From contig JBEWZL010000216.1 of the NCBI GenBank assembly GCA_045837725.1, positions 186,001 through 250,000 on the forward strand: 64,000 bases of DNA, written 5' to 3'. Shown here piece by piece: positions 49,303-57,254 of the stretch (position 1 is its first letter; each line of letters opens with the position of its first letter). A program made the position numbers and the translations under genes. Under the pieces are notes generated by a model. That model worked only from the letters and a program-made list of their open reading frames with translations. It searched no databases and was not told the origin of the DNA. The stretch comes from Vermamoeba vermiformis. Taxonomy: Eukaryota.

Positions 49303-51159
49303 ATGTCTGAACCAAGTGACTTCATTCGTTGGGGATCTATCGAAGGATTGCACCACATTCGCTCTCATCTGGAAAAGGAACGCGATAAGACTACGGGTAT
49401 GGGGGGGCTATACATAAACTTTAGAGGAGTCTAAAACAGGCTTCGAAATTATTTTCTTTATCAAACTCTATAGTCTCTCCATACATATAACCGTATCTTA
49501 AAGCTAAACTTTTCCGATGAGAAAAAATTTGCATTTGTAGAAATCATTTATGAGTTTTGAGCTTTTGAAATTGAGTTGTTAGGGCCTGCGTAATAATAAT
49601 AAGAAAAGGCATCGCTATTTTCGCCGGTGGTGAATTATGAAATTAATTTTGTTTTTTTTGGGGGATGCAGGCGAACTTTTTGCTCCTTACTCTATCATTA
49701 ATGCCCATAACATGACGCTGCGATACCGATCAAAGGTTAAATTGCACGGCATGAACTGCGGTGTTGTGATTAACCAAGGAGAGATCAAGCTCCAGAGCCG
49801 TAACATGTTTATGGATGGATCTGTCCAAGGTACGTCTTAATTGCATATCTTCCTCCTGCAAGTTTGCAACATATGCACGTGCTTTGTGGTGCTTACTGTT
49901 GTATTGTTCAGGAAACAAGCAAAAGGGCAAATTTTTCGGATTCGACGCGTGGGCCCTTAAACAAAAAGATTTCTTTTTGGCGCTTGAAGAACCCATTAGA
50001 AAGCACCTCAAACTCGCCGATGATGCTCTCATCACGTTGTTTGGCGAATGGTGCGGCCCTGCTGTGCAAAAAGGTAAGCTGACGATTTGCCGCCTTTTTT
50101 ATTTGAATCTGATCGACCGTTGGAAATATTCAATTTCTTTTTTTATCCTCATTTATATTATTTTAAAATACTCGACTATACATCAAATAGGAAAAATTGA
50201 TCAATTCCGTTAGCTAAATCCAGTAGCGGATTAACGTTTTTTGTTTATCCGAATATTATTTTAAATAACCATGTTATAGGTGTCGCCCTTAGCAAGCTAA
50301 AGAAGCCCATTTTCGCTCTCTTTGCAGTGCGCGTTAGTACAAACCTCCTGATCGTCGAACCTGAAGCCATCCACAAACTATTGGAATTGTCTTCCAAGCC
50401 TCGTCCAGCTGATCTCTATGTGCTGCCGTGGCACGAGGACTATCGTATGCCCGAGCAGAGCCATCGCGAGATCACTTTGAAGTACGACGACGAAACTAGC
50501 CTCGAGGCAAAGGCAGTCATCATTCAATCAATTGTGGTCGACATTGATCGCGAAGACCCTTGGGTCCGTCGCCAATTCGACGTTAGCGGCGTCGGCGAAG
50601 GATTGGTATTCTATCCTATGAATTTGATTGGTGACGGTACGTATAATCAACGCTCAAACATGCGTGTAAACGCAAGATCCAAATTACTTTTAAAAAATTT
50701 ATTTCAACTTCTCTCGCATTCCAAATCATTAAATAGCGCATATTTTATATACACTATTGATATATTTATTAATTTTCGGTCTCTTTAGATGGTTACATCG
50801 CATCCGAAGTGTTCGAAGCGTTCAGCTTCAAGGCTAAAGGTGCCTCGCATCAAATGACATCAGGCGCGCAATCAAAAGGCATCCAATTGAAGACTCAAAC
50901 TGTTGCATCTCCTCAAGAGTTCGTCGAGTTGTTCTTGACTGTTAGCCGCTTCTCTCAAGGTGTCACCGAGATCACCCTCGGAGACATGTCCGCGCTCGAG
51001 AAATCCAAGTTTATTGATTGGGTAGTCAATGACGTCAAGAAGGAGAGCAAGATTGAGTTAGAGGACAGCAAGTTGAATTGGACCGACGTCGAGCCGCTCA
51101 TTAGAAACAAGGCAGATGCGTGGTTCGACGAGAACATCAAGTTGTCTCCTCAATCGTAA
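49303..51159 (+). CDS. ATP-dependent RNA ligase, Rnl2-like family (5 exons)
   Basis: Motif I KLHGMN, Ia QSRN, III FGEWCG, IIIa FALFAV, IV EGLV, V FKAK, and an Rnl2-like helical C-domain (FLTVSRF...VNDVKKE). Confidence 0.85.
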
Positions 51160-51430
51160 GACTCGTTTATCTATGTTTAATATATTCTCACCAGTTGCTT
51201 AATTAACGCATATTGTAATCGTTCTTATCAATTTATCAAAAAATAAATTCCTTTAAACCGGATTTGCCTTTCTTTCGTGCCAACTGGTGAGAAAAAAACG
51301 ATGTAAATAGGAGTACTCCATACTTATATTACTTGGCAGGGGTTTTAAGAAGACGTTTTCACTGGCTAATAGCTCCTATGTTTCTCCGTTAAAGTCGTCT
51401 TATTCGTCATTACGACTTAGCACATCCGTT

Positions 51431-53843
51431 ATGGTCACCGCTTCTCAAATTCAATCCACTTTATTCGAGAATATGAAAGTGTTCATCTCCGAACGCTTGC
51501 CTTACAAGCAGAAATCTCACTTAACGAAGCTCATCAAGGAACATAGCGGCAACATCATCTTTATGTTCTCACCAGCGAACTGCACTCACGTAGTTGAAGT
51601 CGAAGGCTCGCTGAGTGCATCGAGATTGGAAAAATTAGAGTCTTTTTCGAAGAAAAGCAAGACGCAGGCTCCTGTTGCGTTACCATTCGTTATCAAAGGT
51701 AAGCCAAAAGACCAAACCCTAACCCTAATTTTCGCCACATCCGGGGCTGCTGTAGCTCAGTTGGTAGAGCGGAAAACTTCTATTATCTGGTCGCGGGTTC
51801 AAGTCCCGCCAGCAGCGATTCTTTTAGTTCGCTTTAAATAACCCCAAAACAAAAGTTTTCTCACCCCAATTTCTGTTGCAGATGCGTATTTCCATGATTG
51901 CGTAGCGCAAAATCAACGACTGGCCGAAGAGAAATACCAGCTTTGGGCATTGGCCAAAGGAGTTTTGGCCACTTCAGCTGTCCAAGACATCAAAAAGTGC
52001 GTAGATTTTTGGATTATGTCTGTTTATGTATCAAACTTACAGATCCGGTTTACAGAGACGAAGAAATATTGCCTGCTATTGACCCTGAAGAGGATGGTAA
52101 TATTGTGATCGATCTCGCAGAAGGTGAATCGATTCCAAAGCTCTTTGTATGGAGTTACGGTCAAAAGCGTGAACCGAGTTTTCCGTCAAATTTCACGGTG
52201 ATCAAATACACAATGTTGCACGCCATGGACTTTGAGAATAATAACAATAAGTTCTATTACATGGAGATACAACAAGCACCGAGTGATTTTGAAGGCACGT
52301 TCAAGTACCGCGTGTTCACACATCACGGCAGAACTGACGAGCTGGAGGTCAAGTCCAAAAATATCGGTCAGAAGCAGTGTCGCTATTGTTTCAATGAGCG
52401 CGAGGCACAATTGATCTACTTGAGCATTCTCAAAGAGAAAACAAGCGAAGAAAAAGGCTACAAAACGATTCACTTGTTGTCAATCTCGAATAAGATCGGC
52501 CTTAGTAAGTTTTATTATGGAGTTAATAAGCAACTCAATAACTTTTTTTTCCTCGTAGAATCGATGGAGGTGTCAAGTGTCAAAGTGTCATCAATTGACA
52601 CCGCGCAAGAACAAAGCTCTAAGGCCGACTCGCAGTTGCCAAATCAAATTCAAACACTCGTTAAAGTCCTTTATGACGAGGCCAGTGACGCTTTGAAATC
52701 AGAGTTGCTCGCTCAAGTGACGAACAAAGGTCTCGAAACTCCGCTCGGTATCCTGGCCTTGAAACAGATCGAAAAAGGTACGCTCTAAACGACTCCTAAT
52801 GTATAATAATCTAAATTTCCTAATTAGGCGAGGAGACGTTGATGAAGTTGTACAAATTGTTCAAAGAAGGCAACTCCGACGAAAAGACCTTGTTCAAACT
52901 ATCGAGTCAATTCTATTCGTTGATTCCTCACCGCCTCGGAACAAAAAAGACAGACGTACAAAAGGCTTTGATTAATTCTATGGAATTATTCGCGGAAAAA
53001 CAAAACTTGTTGCAGCTCATGAAAGACATCATTAAAGTCCAACAGAAGCGTGGCAAACAGCTCGATACTAATAGAGGTATGTTATAATCGGCGTTCTTAA
53101 CAAACTCTAACTCTTTTTAGCGGAAATTGATCGCAAGTATGACGCGCTCGACTGCGACATTCAGCCCTTGGACCAGTCCTCATTCGAGTTTGCCGAGCTC
53201 AAGAACAAGCTGATTCAATCGAAGCCTCAGCATAAGGACGATGAAGCTCCTAATAAGTTTGAAGTTGTTAATATCTTCTCTGTGAATCGTTCGGAAGAAG
53301 AACAACAGTTCGCAAGAGAGGTAAGTGTCAAAGTGACAGTTTGACACGTGTCATTGACCCTCCTTTATCAGATGTCAAACCAAAAGTTGCTCGTTCACGG
53401 TTCTCGCGTCGCGAACTTTGTAGGCTTATTGTCCCGCGGTATATTGTTGCCTAAGATCGTGGTCAGCAGAGGTGAGATCCTATCCAGATCCGGTTACAAA
53501 ATTTCACCAATAACCATTTATTATAGGCATGTCCTCGCGCACAGATTTTGGCTACTTAGGCTCGGGCGTCTATTTTTCTGATAATCTCTATGCCAGTATC
53601 AAGTACGCGGCACCCTCCAAAAATGGCAATAGATTCGCTTTGATGACCCTCGTGTCTCTGGGCCGTGCAAAAGAATTCACTAAGATCACTCCTAATTTGG
53701 AAAGAGCTCCTGAAGGCTTTGACAGTTGCATTGGTCTCGCACATAGTTCGCAAAAATCATCGGATTTCATGAACAACGAGTACGTGGTCTACAACGCGTC
53801 GCAGTATAAGAACCAGTATCTTGTAGAGTTTAGATTGATTTAA
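51431..53843 (+). CDS. PARP with BRCT, WGR-like, regulatory and catalytic domains; vault-PARP (PARP4)-like but without VIT/vWA
   Basis: BRCT LFENMKVFISERLPYKQK..CTHVV; WGR-like NNNKFYYMEI..HHGRT; regulatory LSSQFYSLIPH; catalytic HGS..LLSRGILLPK..RTDFGYLGSGVYFSD..SIKY..NEYVVY with the H-Y-E triad intact; stop at 53843. Confidence 0.9.
51746..51817 (+). tRNA. Intronic tRNA-like gene or pseudo-tRNA (nominal anticodon TCT; degenerate anticodon stem)
   Basis: Acceptor stem GCTGCTG/CAGCAGC, D arm GCTC-AGTTGGTA-GAGC, T arm GCGGG-TTCAAGT-CCCGC, TTTT shortly after. The anticodon stem GAAAA/TATCT has 2 mismatches. Lies within intron 51699-51881. Confidence 0.75.
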
Positions 53844-54152
53844 TTAATGAACCCATTTATTAAGTAACGCATCAATTCTTCGTTTTCACGTGACAGCGAG
53901 ATCAAAGGAAAAAGATAATTTTGCGATATTTCTCAGTTCGCCACAACAAAAGAAAATATTATATAACACATAACTTAAGAATTATTTTAAATACACGTTC
54001 CGCAGTATTGATTCGAACCTTAAGGTACGTCCAGCCTTGATACAGATCCTTCTCGGTTAAACATTCTCAATAGTAAAATAACACTTTAAGTTTATTACCT
54101 AATAATTTTTAAAGAAATTTTTGGCATTAAATCATATTAACATAGCACAGAA

Positions 54153-55574
54153 ATGTGGACTTTTCAACTTGGTCACGGATGGGGAGGTCTGCCGCCAACC
54201 AACGTTCACTCATTTGAAATTGCCGAAATTATAGGAGAATATGGAGAATATTTTAAGATAGAATTTGATGCGCGCCATTGGACCGATAAATTATCATTGA
54301 GGCTTGAAGATTCATCTGGATGTCGCCACAACCTGCCTCATTTCTTCAAAGCAGGCGAGCTAAAGACCTTCAATATTATAGTCGATGGGTCTGCAGGAAT
54401 CAGCGAATACTTTTTCACTTGTTCCCTGCACATCTGGCCAAAGGAATTTCCAACACCGATCGCAAAATTCAAATCGCTTTCTACGGTCCAAATAATGCCA
54501 CCAGAATTACGGAAATTTAGCGACACAAGAAAATATACACAGAGTACCCCTAGGCTAAGAACTAGACGAAAAGGCGAAGAAGAATGGAAAGACAGCATTT
54601 TTATGATTTCGTTTACCGGATCCGACGAGATTATCGAAGCGCAGTTCTATGCTACACTTGAAAATGGCAGAATAATTAATAGTCCAATTCTAGAAGTCAG
54701 TTCAATGTGCCGCGAGTTTGATTTTGAAAAAGAATGTCAGATCGACCTCGAAGAAATGAATTTACATCGAAGATTCAATCTTATATTCGACAAAGAGAAA
54801 TTTTATAAGACAGATGTGCTATTCTTATTGAAGAAACTAGAACCTACATATTCAGATGATAATAAGGAAGTTATACTAGGCGGGAGCGGGATCGACTGCG
54901 ATATTATTAAAATTGAGAAAAAACAATTAATCCCTGGAGCCCGTTACGAATTAAAATTGGACGTTAAGACCCTTAGTATATCATATATTAGAATATTTGA
55001 AGTGCCCAGTGATCACCCAATTGACAACGCACTTTGGACAGCCCTCTTTGGATCAGCAGATCGCGTCACTTTTACTCGAAAAGAAGCACAAAAACATCGC
55101 GCAATTACGAGTTTTATTGCACCGATAGGCAGTCTGACAGAAGTTAACATCGAAATAAGCCATATAACGCTATACAAACATGGATTTTATTCCTACAAGA
55201 AGACCTTTCAAGCGTACAAAGAAGCATATCCTGCGCGGGAAAAATCAGATTTTAGCGGCGTTTTTTCGCTATTAGGAACTGATACAACGAATGTACGAAT
55301 CAATTTAACAAAATTATTCAAGGAAAAAGTATCAACTAAGCCAACTATCGAATTATCGCCAGTGGATCTGGCTTACCAAGAAACAAATTCAGCGGCGCTT
55401 TTATTCCCAGAATTATTACGCACGATAGTGCCATATGACAGCGAGAATAAAAAACGGAGCTGCAGACTTGTTTGTAAAAGTTGGTGTTTGGCTCTGGATC
55501 CGACAGCGATTTCAGGTACTGTGACAGCTGAAGCGATAGAGTTATTTAATGTTGTACATAGTCGCGATAAATAA
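54153..55574 (+). CDS. Uncharacterised beta-rich protein with a C-terminal F-box-like motif, paralogue 1
   Basis: 473-aa single-exon ORF; LLFPELLRTIVPY...CRLVCKSW near the C-terminus; collinear with the next gene. Confidence 0.8.
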   Translation: MWTFQLGHGWGGLPPTNVHSFEIAEIIGEYGEYFKIEFDARHWTDKLSLRLEDSSGCRHNLPHFFKAGELKTFNIIVDGSAGISEYFFTCSLHIWPKEFPTPIAKFKSLSTVQIMPPELRKFSDTRKYTQSTPRLRTRRKGEEEWKDSIFMISFTGSDEIIEAQFYATLENGRIINSPILEVSSMCREFDFEKECQIDLEEMNLHRRFNLIFDKEKFYKTDVLFLLKKLEPTYSDDNKEVILGGSGIDCDIIKIEKKQLIPGARYELKLDVKTLSISYIRIFEVPSDHPIDNALWTALFGSADRVTFTRKEAQKHRAITSFIAPIGSLTEVNIEISHITLYKHGFYSYKKTFQAYKEAYPAREKSDFSGVFSLLGTDTTNVRINLTKLFKEKVSTKPTIELSPVDLAYQETNSAALLFPELLRTIVPYDSENKKRSCRLVCKSWCLALDPTAISGTVTAEAIELFNVVHSRDK

Positions 55575-55859
55575 ATAGCAAGGCTATAAAGTCTTAAAAC
55601 ATAAAATTTCAAAAACCGTGTAGATCTCAAACTTGTTGTCGTCTATTGACATTTTTGAATCCAACGCAATTAATTAATTAATGACCAACACAAACACAAC
55701 ATATATATTATAATTTGAGGACCTGCACATTAATCAAGGCTATAAAGTAAGTAGAAGGCCTTCCTGAGATTGGAATACTCGAGTCTTTTTCTGAAATTAA
55801 AAAGAGCGCTAAATTCACCAATAATAATAATAGTAAAATTAATTATTTTAATATTAGTC

Positions 55860-57254
55860 ATGTGGTCATATCGTTTGGGCGCCGGATCGGGACGAAAAGA
55901 CAACAGCACCCACTTCTTTGAAATAACCAAACACATATTAAATGTTGGAGAGTATTATATGATAAAATTTGAAGTTACGAGTCGTGGAAAAGATAGATTG
56001 TCTTGCAAATTAAAAGACGGAGATGGATGTCAACACGATCTGCCTTATTTGTTCAAAAAGGGCCAGCTCGATCAATTTTATATAATCGTAGATGGCGCTA
56101 CAACAGATTATTCGTTCAAATATACAATGGATATTTGGCCAAAAACGCTTCCTGCACCGATCGCAAAATACTGCTCGATCTCAACTGTCCACATTACATC
56201 ACAGTATTCCGGGCAATTAACCACGCCACCTTCTTTCAGATATAGGAAAAAAGGAGAAGAAGATTGGATCTCAACGAACATACCACGGATAACGTTTGAC
56301 GGATGTGACGAAATCTACGAAGCCCAGTTGTTTTACCAGCTACGAAGTGACATTATAGTAGAAAGTCCACTATTAAATGTCGAATGCATGTGGCGCCATT
56401 TTGATATTGAAAAAGAAAGCCAGATCGACCTTGACAAATGGATTTGCAACCAAAGAATTGACATTACCGTAAATTCTGATAGCTTGTATCAAACAAGATA
56501 TGTTGCAACTGTTCGTATGATACATCCATTGGACCATGAAGATTATAACAAAGAAACAAAGATTTTTTCGTTTACGGATGTAGAGGCGGTATCAACCCGT
56601 ACTCCAGTCAAAATGGTCCCTGGAGCAAGTTACGAATTCAAATTGAGCATATTAAGGCCACAAGTATCATTTTGTAGAGTTATTGATGTTCCTTGTTATG
56701 CACCAATAGAAGAAAATTTATGGACAACTCTTTTCGGGGACACGGATCACGTTGCTTTTCAACGAAGAGACTCGCAGTGGATAGAGGGCCCGATCAATTG
56801 GGTATCAGGAGACGCAGAGATGAAAGAGACTAATATAAAAACGAAGATATTGGCTCTATACAAACACGGCACTTATTTGTTCCACTCGACCTTTAAGAGT
56901 TACGTCAACAGCCTTGCGAAAGAATTGTCGTATTTTACTGGCAGTTTTAAGTTGTACAGAATAGACGATACAAAAGCTCGTATTGAATTAACCAAGTCAT
57001 TCCAACAAATACTCCCCTTCAAGCCACCATCACCAATTTTATCGGAGGCAGATCCGACGTTCCAAGCACAAGTCCCATCCGCACTTCTATTACCAGAACT
57101 TATCCAACACATAGCTAATTTTGTAGATTATAACCAGAAGTTGACTAATAGACGCGTGTGCAAGTACTGGTATTCCGTTTTTCAACCAACCATTGTCGGT
57201 ACATTGACCTCAAAGTCAATGCAATTGTTAGATCAAACTTGGACGAAAAAATAA
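55860..57254 (+). CDS. Uncharacterised beta-rich protein with a C-terminal F-box-like motif, paralogue 2
   Basis: ATG at 55860 (MWSYRLG) aligns with MWTFQLG of paralogue 1; LLLPELIQHIANF...RRVCKYW near the C-terminus. Confidence 0.8.
   Translation: MWSYRLGAGSGRKDNSTHFFEITKHILNVGEYYMIKFEVTSRGKDRLSCKLKDGDGCQHDLPYLFKKGQLDQFYIIVDGATTDYSFKYTMDIWPKTLPAPIAKYCSISTVHITSQYSGQLTTPPSFRYRKKGEEDWISTNIPRITFDGCDEIYEAQLFYQLRSDIIVESPLLNVECMWRHFDIEKESQIDLDKWICNQRIDITVNSDSLYQTRYVATVRMIHPLDHEDYNKETKIFSFTDVEAVSTRTPVKMVPGASYEFKLSILRPQVSFCRVIDVPCYAPIEENLWTTLFGDTDHVAFQRRDSQWIEGPINWVSGDAEMKETNIKTKILALYKHGTYLFHSTFKSYVNSLAKELSYFTGSFKLYRIDDTKARIELTKSFQQILPFKPPSPILSEADPTFQAQVPSALLLPELIQHIANFVDYNQKLTNRRVCKYWYSVFQPTIVGTLTSKSMQLLDQTWTKK

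Follow-up and report, generated by a model that had tools for sequence, protein, structure and literature searches.

A tRNA-like gene with a conserved body and a defective anticodon arm in an intron of a protist RNA ligase-PARP gene

Non-decoding RNAs with the shape of a tRNA (mascRNA, BC1, nimtRNAs and bacterial YrlA) are few, and most of those known come from animals or bacteria. Among them, the mascRNA and MEN-beta RNAs combine a good acceptor/T-arm helix with a reduced anticodon region and are processed by tRNA enzymes. Degenerate tRNA genes can also be kept for their A and B boxes, as is the case for the yeast tRNA relics bound by TFIIIC. The tRNA-like promoter companions of trypanosomatid small-RNA genes (compare PMC2695483) are likewise degenerate tRNA genes in which the A and B boxes have been kept. 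Finally, Hoser et al. 2020 (PMC7722341) describe the nimtRNAs as intronic, mitochondrial-derived tRNA look-alikes that enhance splicing. Here we analyse a tRNA-like gene located in an intron of a protist gene, within a 64,000-nt stretch of DNA that we call the window. A search of the literature found no description of such an element or of a "six-nucleotide anticodon loop".

A previous, sequence-only reading of the window had proposed a 72-nt cloverleaf at 51746-51817, with perfect acceptor, D and T arms, A and B boxes, a TTTT terminator and all of its defects in the anticodon arm, and had suggested scoring it with Infernal. The cloverleaf is real by this measure: the Rfam tRNA family (RF00005) matches 51746-51817 (+) with 59.1 bits, over a gathering cut-off of 29 (E-value 3e-10 for the whole 64-kb window), and this is the sole gathering-level Rfam match in the 64 kb. 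The element comprises the following features:

51746..51817, + strand: tRNA-like RNA gene, 72 nt, with acceptor, D and T arms intact, anticodon arm defective and discriminator G
51753..51764, + strand: A box, tRNA positions 8-19, TAGCTCAGTTGG, read from the sequence and identical in the ortholog L001
51772..51787, + strand: anticodon arm, stem GAAAA/UUAUC with a central A.A mismatch, from the Infernal alignment
51777-51782, + strand: 6-nt anticodon loop CUUCUA, from the Infernal alignment
51796..51806, + strand: B box, tRNA positions 52-62, GGTTCAAGTCC, read from the sequence and identical in L001
51822..51825, + strand: TTTT run, candidate Pol III terminator, 5 nt past the discriminator, read from the sequence

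The Infernal alignment and the sequence itself bear out the intact arms. Every pair of the acceptor stem (7 bp), the D stem (4 bp) and the T stem (5 bp) is standard, and the element carries the core and elbow nucleotides of a tRNA (U8, A14, G15-C48, G18, G19, U54, U55, C56, A58 and G53-C61). The signals of a type-2 Pol III gene are complete (TAGCTCAGTTGG, GGTTCAAGTCC and TTTT at +5), and all three are also present in L001; the boxes are read against their usual consensus sequences. For the anticodon arm two descriptions had been offered, and it is the 6-nt loop (CTTCTA in the DNA) with one mismatch that both programs support, since Infernal deletes one RF00005 model position in the loop CUUCUA and ARAGORN labels the element "tRNA-???", with a two-base anticodon (tc) that implies a 6-nt loop. 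The alternative reading with a 7-nt loop leaves just 2-3 of the 5 anticodon stem pairs. By nearest-neighbour energies the isolated anticodon arm, whose weak A/U stem has two purines opposed at the mismatch, is unstable (+3.9 kcal/mol).

The element is oriented sense with respect to its host intron, both in the window and in L001. The intron and the gene around it are arranged as follows:

49303..53843, + strand: host gene, approximate span, several exons, encoding RNA ligase - BRCT - WGR - PARP_reg - PARP catalytic domains (tblastn, Pfam)
51156..51339, + strand: putative intron, 184 nt, GTAAGA...GGCAG, whose removal would connect the RNA-ligase ORF, in frame, with the BRCT exon (sequence, frames)
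51699..51881, + strand: host intron, 183 nt, GT..AG, phase 1, splitting the BRCT domain (sequence, reading frames)

The bounds of the host intron had been placed exactly in the earlier reading, and its excision joins ...PFVIK to DAYFHDC..., matching the contiguous BRCT sequence of relatives. That reading had taken the host for a PARP4-like gene, which it is not: its exon ORFs match Pfam BRCT, WGR, PARP_reg and PARP, while VIT and vWA domains were not found in them, and the gene is instead an RNA-ligase-BRCT-WGR-PARP fusion. By tblastn, the Balamuthia protein P0002 (Pfam RNA_ligase, PARP_reg and PARP) is collinear with 49715-53840. Balamuthia also provides the closest named relative of the host protein (40% identity), and its homolog terminates at the PARP catalytic domain; the ORFs downstream of the host gene have no Pfam match. 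The upstream end is less sharply defined, with a start codon placed by eye. The BRCT exon of L001 lacks a Met and starts at an AG acceptor, which fits an upstream intron between ligase and BRCT, and in L014, a distant relative, the C-terminus of the ligase and the BRCT domain fall within one tblastn segment. The former label of "intron 1" is wrong provided that the RNA-ligase exons upstream are part of the gene. The RNA-ligase-PARP combination is a true fusion, found in several protist contigs as well as in Balamuthia; "RNA ligase" has 0 occurrences in each of two PARP family surveys, where the fusion was not found, and our literature search found no description of it.

An obvious place to look for conservation, as had been proposed, is the orthologous intron of another species. 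On the metagenome contig L001 we find the orthologous locus, which has the exon order of the window, the intron at the same codon, a WGR exon that is 90% identical in amino acids and the element in the corresponding intron:

L001:361-499: orthologous intron, 139 nt
L001:386-457: orthologous tRNA-like element, RF00005 57.0 bits

Infernal assigns an identical structure to the two elements, including a non-standard pair at one common position of the stem. In L001 the anticodon arm consists of a stem GAAAA/UUGUC with an A.G mismatch and a 6-nt loop CUCUAA, and ARAGORN again reports "tRNA-???", now with the two-base anticodon ct. Neither element has a 7-nt loop with a 3-nt anticodon on a 5-bp stem. 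The minimum free energy fold of the window sequence, which pairs the D region with the arm region, was considered as a conserved alternative fold and rejected because it is absent from L001. Nor is the element coding, as the frames that would be read upon retention of the intron differ between the window and L001, with an in-frame TAG in the latter.

The two loci are well separated. Of their fourfold-degenerate sites, 39/69 differ (JC distance 1.05), so the element has been kept over about 1 substitution per neutral site; the coding exons are 62-78% identical and the intron flanks cannot be aligned. Over the element, 64/72 positions are identical, and tRNA positions 2-26 plus 45-71 are identical throughout (52/52), a result with a chance probability of 1.5e-19 at the rate of the fourfold sites and of about 1e-6 at the rate of whole exons. 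The arm region (positions 27-44) has 5/18 differences (P = 0.013 for five or fewer), none of them at a paired position (P = 0.029): three belong to the loop, and the others are position 44 and the partner base in the mismatch. The conserved letters of the anticodon stem may reflect something other than pairing, because the stem is unstable by nearest-neighbour energies. Covariation amounts to one double change, matched by 252/500 shuffles, in a comparison that has no power with two sequences. The element sequences compared come from two species, plus one further haplotype that adds one variant within the element. Outside the element, the heptamer TCTTTTA just past its 3' end is the sole conserved block in the intron flanks, and the conservation of this T run could be due to chance, the intron being A/T-rich.

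The sequence-only reading had asked whether the element is single copy or one of many SINE heads, and whether its anticodon defects might be assembly errors. In a DNA run that is possibly the window's own source, and hence not independent of it, we found a unitig identical over 51632-51813 at a depth of 356, like that of its flanks, which speaks against assembly error. This single unitig spans unique exon sequence and the element with no change in depth, and therefore no other copy sharing a 31-mer with it is present in that genome; within the 64-kb window there is also one copy. A second haplotype of the window's organism carries A70>G, resulting in a U3.G70 pair, and both haplotypes carry the anticodon-arm defect. 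In three RNA runs labelled as the same species, 0 reads fall across 51150-52250, host exons included, so that this count carries no information on the element.

Among more distant relatives with the fusion gene (L014, L016, L050, L051 and L052) we found neither the intron nor a tRNA-like match, and in clade B relatives the intron site is uninterrupted; the element is therefore lineage-restricted and not generally needed by the host gene. Exact-pattern searches of metagenome contigs for further copies or a parent tRNA gave 0 matches, as did two such searches of viral contigs and a search for relatives among viral proteins. In the collection of genome contigs the arm-specific pattern had 0 matches and the body-only pattern had 1, a Planctomycetales tRNA-Thr(GGU) whose acceptor, D and T arms are the same; this one match is compatible with chance and is not taken as a sign of transfer. 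The signals of a parent isotype are divided, the loop being Arg(UCU)-like while the body matches a bacterial Thr tRNA. A kinship with the suppressor (cta) tRNAs found ahead of PARP genes in phage-like contigs was also considered and dropped, as inspection of the alignment showed just generic tRNA likeness.

Compared with known systems, the element resembles canonical nuclear tRNA genes (RF00005) in its cloverleaf, boxes, T-run terminator, core nucleotides and a score twice the family cut-off. It departs from them in having, in both species, a 6-nt loop and a stem mismatch without an anticodon recognised by ARAGORN. Moreover, 3/6 letters of the anticodon loop differ between the orthologs, the discriminator is G in the window and A in L001, and pair 1-72 is G-C in the former and U-A in the latter, with pairing kept; therefore no anticodon or acceptor identity is conserved between them. 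The mascRNA-menRNA family (RF01684) scores the element at 24.2 bits, below its gathering cut-off of 42.5, and its members arise by cleavage at the 3' ends of vertebrate Pol II lncRNAs, whereas the element has its own boxes and T run and lies in a protist intron. The tRNA-derived SINEs, BC1-type RNAs and bacterial YrlA are likewise non-decoding Pol III or Y-type RNAs derived from or mimicking tRNA, but the element is not dispersed, has no appended body and has no Rfam match except tRNA. It differs from the yeast relics and the trypanosomatid companions in being conserved across its whole body outside the boxes, and from the latter also in that no companion small-RNA gene fits its 25-64-nt flanks. 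With the nimtRNAs it shares an intronic, sense location and a tRNA fold maintained despite base changes, although these are human, multi-copy and derived from numts, whereas the element is one conserved gene whose promoter and terminator are of nuclear type.

On this evidence we think the chances somewhat better than even that the element encodes a non-decoding tRNA-like RNA, present as one copy and probably made by Pol III, on which selection acts to keep the tRNA body. Judged from its sequence, it has every feature needed for production and handling as a tRNA, namely boxes, T4, acceptor, D and T arms and core. The RNA would be transcribed by RNA polymerase III, or else released from the intron, and would then be trimmed by RNase P and RNase Z and receive a CCA tail as tRNAs do. 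Once mature it would be unable to read codons, and specific aminoacylation would probably be absent; its L-shaped body may serve some tRNA-binding factor, whether as ligand, scaffold or decoy. The earlier proposal of a non-decoding mimic instead of a plain pseudogene thus survives at its core, given a body identical at 52/52 positions in L001, a defective arm that is kept and a loop that varies, but without the connection to vaults and PARP4 that accompanied it.

The alternative that fares best, though we hold it unlikely, is that the element acts in cis on the host pre-mRNA, either as a tRNA fold that promotes or regulates splicing in the manner of the nimtRNAs or as an RNase P or RNase Z site that tunes the amount of full-length mRNA. 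Its sense orientation within a short intron in both species, the retention of the cloverleaf and its share of the intron (72/183 nt in the window and 72/139 nt in L001) would all suit such a role, and intronic tRNA look-alikes that need their cloverleaf to enhance splicing are on record (PMC7722341). However, the distances to the splice sites have not been kept, with 47 nt on the 5' side and 64 nt on the 3' side in the window versus 25 and 42 nt in L001, and the clade B relatives have the same domain arrangement without intron or element. The conserved T run right past the 3' end suits a Pol III unit better, and synteny alone would keep the element nested in a short intron.

Quite unlikely is a role at the DNA level, in which the element is a binding site for TFIIIC or Pol III (an extra-TFIIIC site or a tDNA-type boundary) that affects the host gene through chromatin or transcriptional interference and the RNA has no role. 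The A and B boxes are perfectly conserved, as such a site would require, and tDNAs with non-coding roles are on record (PMC7567086). Nevertheless, the constraint exceeds what the promoter alone explains, since all 38 of the 52 invariant positions that lie outside the boxes are identical (38/38, P = 1.8e-14), both strands of the acceptor stem included, and the changes in that stem preserve pairing.

We regard it as very unlikely that the element is, or was until very recently, a decoding tRNA, with an Arg(UCU) type as the best candidate, that lost one loop base in each lineage or still functions with six loop nucleotides. As a tRNA the body is fully competent, its acceptor, D and T arms being those of the Planctomycetales tRNA-Thr(GGU), and the sequence CUUCUAA, the canonical Arg(UCU) anticodon loop, yields CUUCUA (window) upon loss of one A and CUCUAA (L001) upon loss of one U. 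This scenario requires two independent loop deletions, so recent that about 60 other constrained sites are still unchanged, with each branch spanning about 0.5 substitutions per site. The stem mismatch is common to both species and hence old, the defect is present in both haplotypes of the window's organism, and the loop, the discriminator and pair 1-72 all differ between the species as described above.

Decay of a plain tRNA pseudogene or SINE head, with the likeness of L001 due to chance, gene conversion by a functional tRNA family or recent transfer, is strongly disfavoured and, from the sequences compared, highly improbable. A broken anticodon arm is the commonest appearance of a dying tRNA gene, and a parent with the same body that shares fewer than 31 consecutive bases would escape the unitig evidence. 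The argument previously drawn from the clustering of the defects in one arm is weak, as just two or three mutational events are involved. What tells against decay is that the body is identical at 52/52 positions, that the architecture of the arm is shared and that the differences lie at unpaired positions. A pseudogene should evolve at the neutral rate, but 0/52 body positions differ versus 39/69 fourfold sites, at a neutral distance of about 1. The element occupies the same site in an orthologous intron whose flanks do not align, and conversion tracts would need to have skipped the 18-nt middle twice. As for a SINE, the element is single copy; dispersed copies and a tRNA-unrelated body with a tail are absent from the 64-kb window and the unitig, and the sequence on either side is ordinary intron. 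The suggestion, from the sequence-only reading, of a vault-RNA analogue that cooperates with a PARP4-like vault protein has practically nothing left in its favour except that the promoter is of the type-2 Pol III kind and the host gene encodes a PARP, given a host with WGR and PARP_reg but neither VIT nor vWA, a Balamuthia homolog that stops at the catalytic domain and no match to the vault RNA family at E<=1.

Returning to a non-decoding RNA selected for its tRNA body, a more specific version is a long shot: that the RNA is the dedicated partner of the surrounding RNA-ligase-BRCT-WGR-PARP protein, as a ligand that the enzyme senses or works on. It would then be made together with the host gene, from the intron or under linked control. 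Its 5'-phosphate or recessed acceptor end might activate the WGR-PARP module, or its exposed, sequence-free anticodon loop might take the place of the true substrate, or act as a decoy, when anticodon loops are broken and repaired by the ligase. The idea of a ligase substrate, raised earlier, is speculation and gains just the coincidence of an RNA ligase domain in the host gene. If this partnership holds, RNA and protein would form a pair for signalling RNA damage, with one gene nested in the other.

A tRNA gene that looks broken is usually dismissed as a pseudogene. The one described here is under stronger constraint than the protein-coding exons that surround it while its anticodon loop drifts, which is the hallmark of an RNA that serves by its tRNA shape and not by decoding. 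A conserved, promoter-bearing example from a protist would widen the class of non-decoding tRNA-shaped RNAs, and it would offer a simple system for assigning the parts of the tRNA body to the factors that recognise them.

The tRNA-like element at window 51746-51817 (+) scores 59.1 bits against the Rfam tRNA model (cut-off 29, E 3e-10) and is the sole gathering-level Rfam match within the 64-kb window. In the Infernal alignment only standard pairs occur in the acceptor stem (7 bp), the D stem (4 bp) and the T stem (5 bp). The anticodon stem, GAAAA/UUAUC, contains one A.A pair and closes a 6-nt loop, CUUCUA, with one model position deleted; if a 7-nt loop is drawn instead, just 3 of the 5 stem pairs remain. 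ARAGORN reports 'tRNA-???' with a two-base anticodon. With standard tRNA numbering, U8, A14, G15-C48, G18, G19 and G26 are all present, as are U54, U55, C56, A58 and G53-C61. The sequence-only reading had thus described the 72-nt cloverleaf accurately, in its arms, its A and B boxes and its TTTT run. Nearest-neighbour energies give no stable helix for the isolated anticodon arm (+3.9 kcal/mol), and in context the arm is 1.6-2.0 kcal/mol worse than an open one.

Features of the locus (window coordinates, except for L001, a metagenome contig carrying the orthologous locus)
51156-51339, +, putative intron (GTAAGA...GGCAG) joining the ligase ORF to the BRCT exon in frame
51699-51881, +, element-bearing intron, GT..AG, phase 1, interrupting the BRCT domain
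51753-51764, +, A box, consistent with the consensus
51796-51806, +, B box, consistent with the consensus
51822-51825, +, TTTT run, read from the sequence
L001 386-457, same orientation as the window element, tRNA-like element, Rfam 57.0 bits

The successive exon ORFs of the host gene (51311-53843) match the BRCT, WGR, PARP_reg and PARP catalytic domains of Pfam, and no VIT or vWA domain was found on them by Pfam. This architecture is of PARP1/2 type, so that the host is not PARP4-like, as had been proposed, and the vault-RNA idea built on that framing finds no support. Among named homologs the best is a protein of 1164 aa from Balamuthia mandrillaris (Pfam RNA_ligase, PARP_reg and PARP), collinear with window 49715-53840 by tblastn. 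We assign the upstream RNA ligase to the host gene because an in-frame intron joins it to the BRCT exon, because the L001 BRCT exon lacks a Met and starts directly at the AG acceptor, and because the ligase C-terminus and BRCT lie within a single tblastn segment in five more distant contigs (L014, L016, L050, L051 and L052). The element-bearing intron is therefore not intron 1, the label it had first been given. The predicted product of the host gene, which spans approximately window 49303-53843 (+), is a genuine fusion between an Rnl2/DraRnl-type RNA ligase and BRCT-WGR-PARP_reg-PARP, collinear in the window, in Balamuthia (where the Pfam RNA_ligase domain was assigned) and in several intron-bearing metagenome contigs. 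We did not encounter this fusion in the PARP family surveys PMC2964712 and PMC4245714, where a text search gave 0 occurrences of 'RNA ligase'; among 12 of the 22 'ligase' or 'Amoebozoa' passages of the former, those that mention ligases deal with ubiquitin ligases. Downstream lie two tandem paralogous ORFs (54141-55574 and 55755-57254, +; 477 and 499 aa) with similar F-box-like tails, neither with a Pfam match.

An exact-pattern scan of metagenome contigs for the element gave no match. A protein-guided scan of such contigs yielded 71 loci, among them L001 (1423 nt), whose WGR exon is 90% identical to that of the window in amino acids. The exon order is the same, and at the same codon L001 has an intron (361-499, 139 nt) containing the element in the same orientation. 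Its Rfam structure line is also the same: the loop again has 6 nt and the non-standard stem pair occupies the equivalent position. ARAGORN again returns 'tRNA-???'. The MFE structure of the L001 element is the cloverleaf without its anticodon arm; that of the window element is a different, non-conserved pairing. Two telomere-type CCCTAA units (51716-51729), about 20 nt upstream of the window element, are absent from L001. A protein-coding role was rejected, since the read-through frames differ between window and L001, with an in-frame stop in the latter.

The two loci have diverged considerably. At fourfold-degenerate sites of the BRCT and WGR exons 39 of 69 differ (p = 0.565, JC distance 1.05), and the BRCT exon, the exon that follows it and the WGR exon are 74%, 62% and 78% identical in nucleotides. 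The intron flanks, 47 nt upstream and 64 nt downstream in the window but 25 and 42 nt in L001, are unalignable except for the splice sites and a heptamer, TCTTTTA, right after the element. The element itself matches at 64 of 72 positions, with positions 2-26 and 45-71 identical throughout (52/52). If these 52 sites had evolved at the fourfold-site rate, finding none changed would have a probability of 1.5e-19; whole-exon rates give about 1e-6 to 1e-7. The eight differences fall at position 1, at three positions of the loop, at the partner in the mismatch (A vs G), at 44 and 72 and at the discriminator; pair 1-72 is altered on both sides, from G-C to U-A. Five of the eight fall among the 18 positions of the arm region (P of 5 or fewer = 0.013), and each of these five is unpaired (P = 0.029). 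Since 3 of the 6 loop positions differ, the loop letters evolve at about the neutral rate; the length of the loop, the eight stem letters that pair and the entire body are held across both species. Covariation has no power with two species, the one double change being matched by 252 of 500 shuffles.

Read support came from a DNA run that contains 94% of sampled words and is possibly the window's own source. In it, a unitig identical to 51632-51813 has a depth of 356, similar to adjacent unique sequence. As shared 31-mers break unitigs, no second copy in that genome should share a 31-mer with the element and, by the same reasoning, L001, with a 32-nt run identical to the element, should belong to another genome. 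The window holds one copy with up to 3 mismatches tolerated in either half, so the element is single-copy rather than one of many SINEs. A second haplotype, with roughly a third of the depth, is present in run X2 over window 51150-52250 and shows 16 differences in 1101 nt (15 substitutions and 1 insertion, about 1.5%); the organism or sample is heterozygous, polyploid or mixed. Both haplotypes have the arm defects. The single variant within the element (51814 A>G, turning U3-A70 into U3.G70) is what average density predicts for 72 nt and is therefore uninformative on constraint.

Splicing out the intron gives ...PFVIK-DAYFHDC..., with FMIVDTKF as counterpart in Balamuthia and an uninterrupted PFYIVGEEF in L014 and L051. 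The five distant contigs, from two or three close taxa and 36-42% identical to the query, carry the same fusion gene, intron-free at this codon and with no tRNA-like element by ARAGORN or Rfam; the element is thus confined to the lineage of the window and L001.

Besides L001, 13 of the 71 WGR-PARP loci (L002, L021, L024, L025, L026, L029, L030, L040, L045, L056, L057, L064 and L068) carry a tRNA gene on the strand of the PARP match and 30-557 nt upstream of it, measured from the end of the tRNA gene: Leu-caa in six, suppressor cta in three, Met in two, Pro and Leu-tag. Every one of these 13 belongs to the 34 loci of GC <= 0.44 and none to the 37 of GC >= 0.53; some lie in arrays of 9-11 tRNAs. 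L021 is phage-like in appearance, with HNH and homing endonucleases (PHROGs); in L029 the PARP is followed by a GNAT and a cytidylyltransferase-like gene, adjoining isocitrate lyase and malate synthase. The single match in the prokaryote genome collection, a tRNA-Thr(GGU) of a Planctomycetales MAG (L072:300-373), is identical to the element in its acceptor, D, variable and T regions, probably through convergence within limited tRNA sequence space.

We thus have a tRNA-shaped element, conserved and single-copy, that has promoter boxes and has retained its T run, while its anticodon loop varies freely. Conservation with L001 supports the proposal of a non-decoding tRNA mimic rather than a pseudogene. 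Foremost among the alternatives is a cis-acting intronic structure resembling the human nimtRNAs (PMC7722341). Next comes a promoter or TFIIIC site acting only at the DNA level, which leaves unexplained the conservation outside the boxes (0 differences at 38 positions, P = 1.8e-14). A decoding tRNA is unlikely, as loop, discriminator and pair 1-72 differ between the orthologs and both loops have 6 nt. A single deletion turns CUUCUAA, the usual Arg(UCU) loop, into either of the two loops, so a working tRNA could formally have been broken recently and independently in each lineage; both events would have to date from roughly the last tenth of their branches and to have been followed by no other change, and the stem mismatch common to both species would stay unexplained. 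Neutral decay ranks last, a plain pseudogene or SINE head being excluded by conservation and copy number.

By sequence and structure the element qualifies as an Rfam tRNA, but it fails on the decoding features; it falls short of mascRNA (24.2 vs 42.5 bits), and no Rfam family besides tRNA matches it. In the library searched, neither an element of this kind nor anticodon loops of 6 nt turned up. Its variable discriminator and first pair make a fixed aminoacylation identity improbable. We infer that Pol III transcribes the element, or possibly that its RNA is released from the intron; RNase P and RNase Z would process it, a CCA tail would be added, and its L-shaped body would act on some tRNA-binding factor without decoding. 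Its conservation in two species suggests that it belongs with the tRNA-derived non-decoding RNAs.
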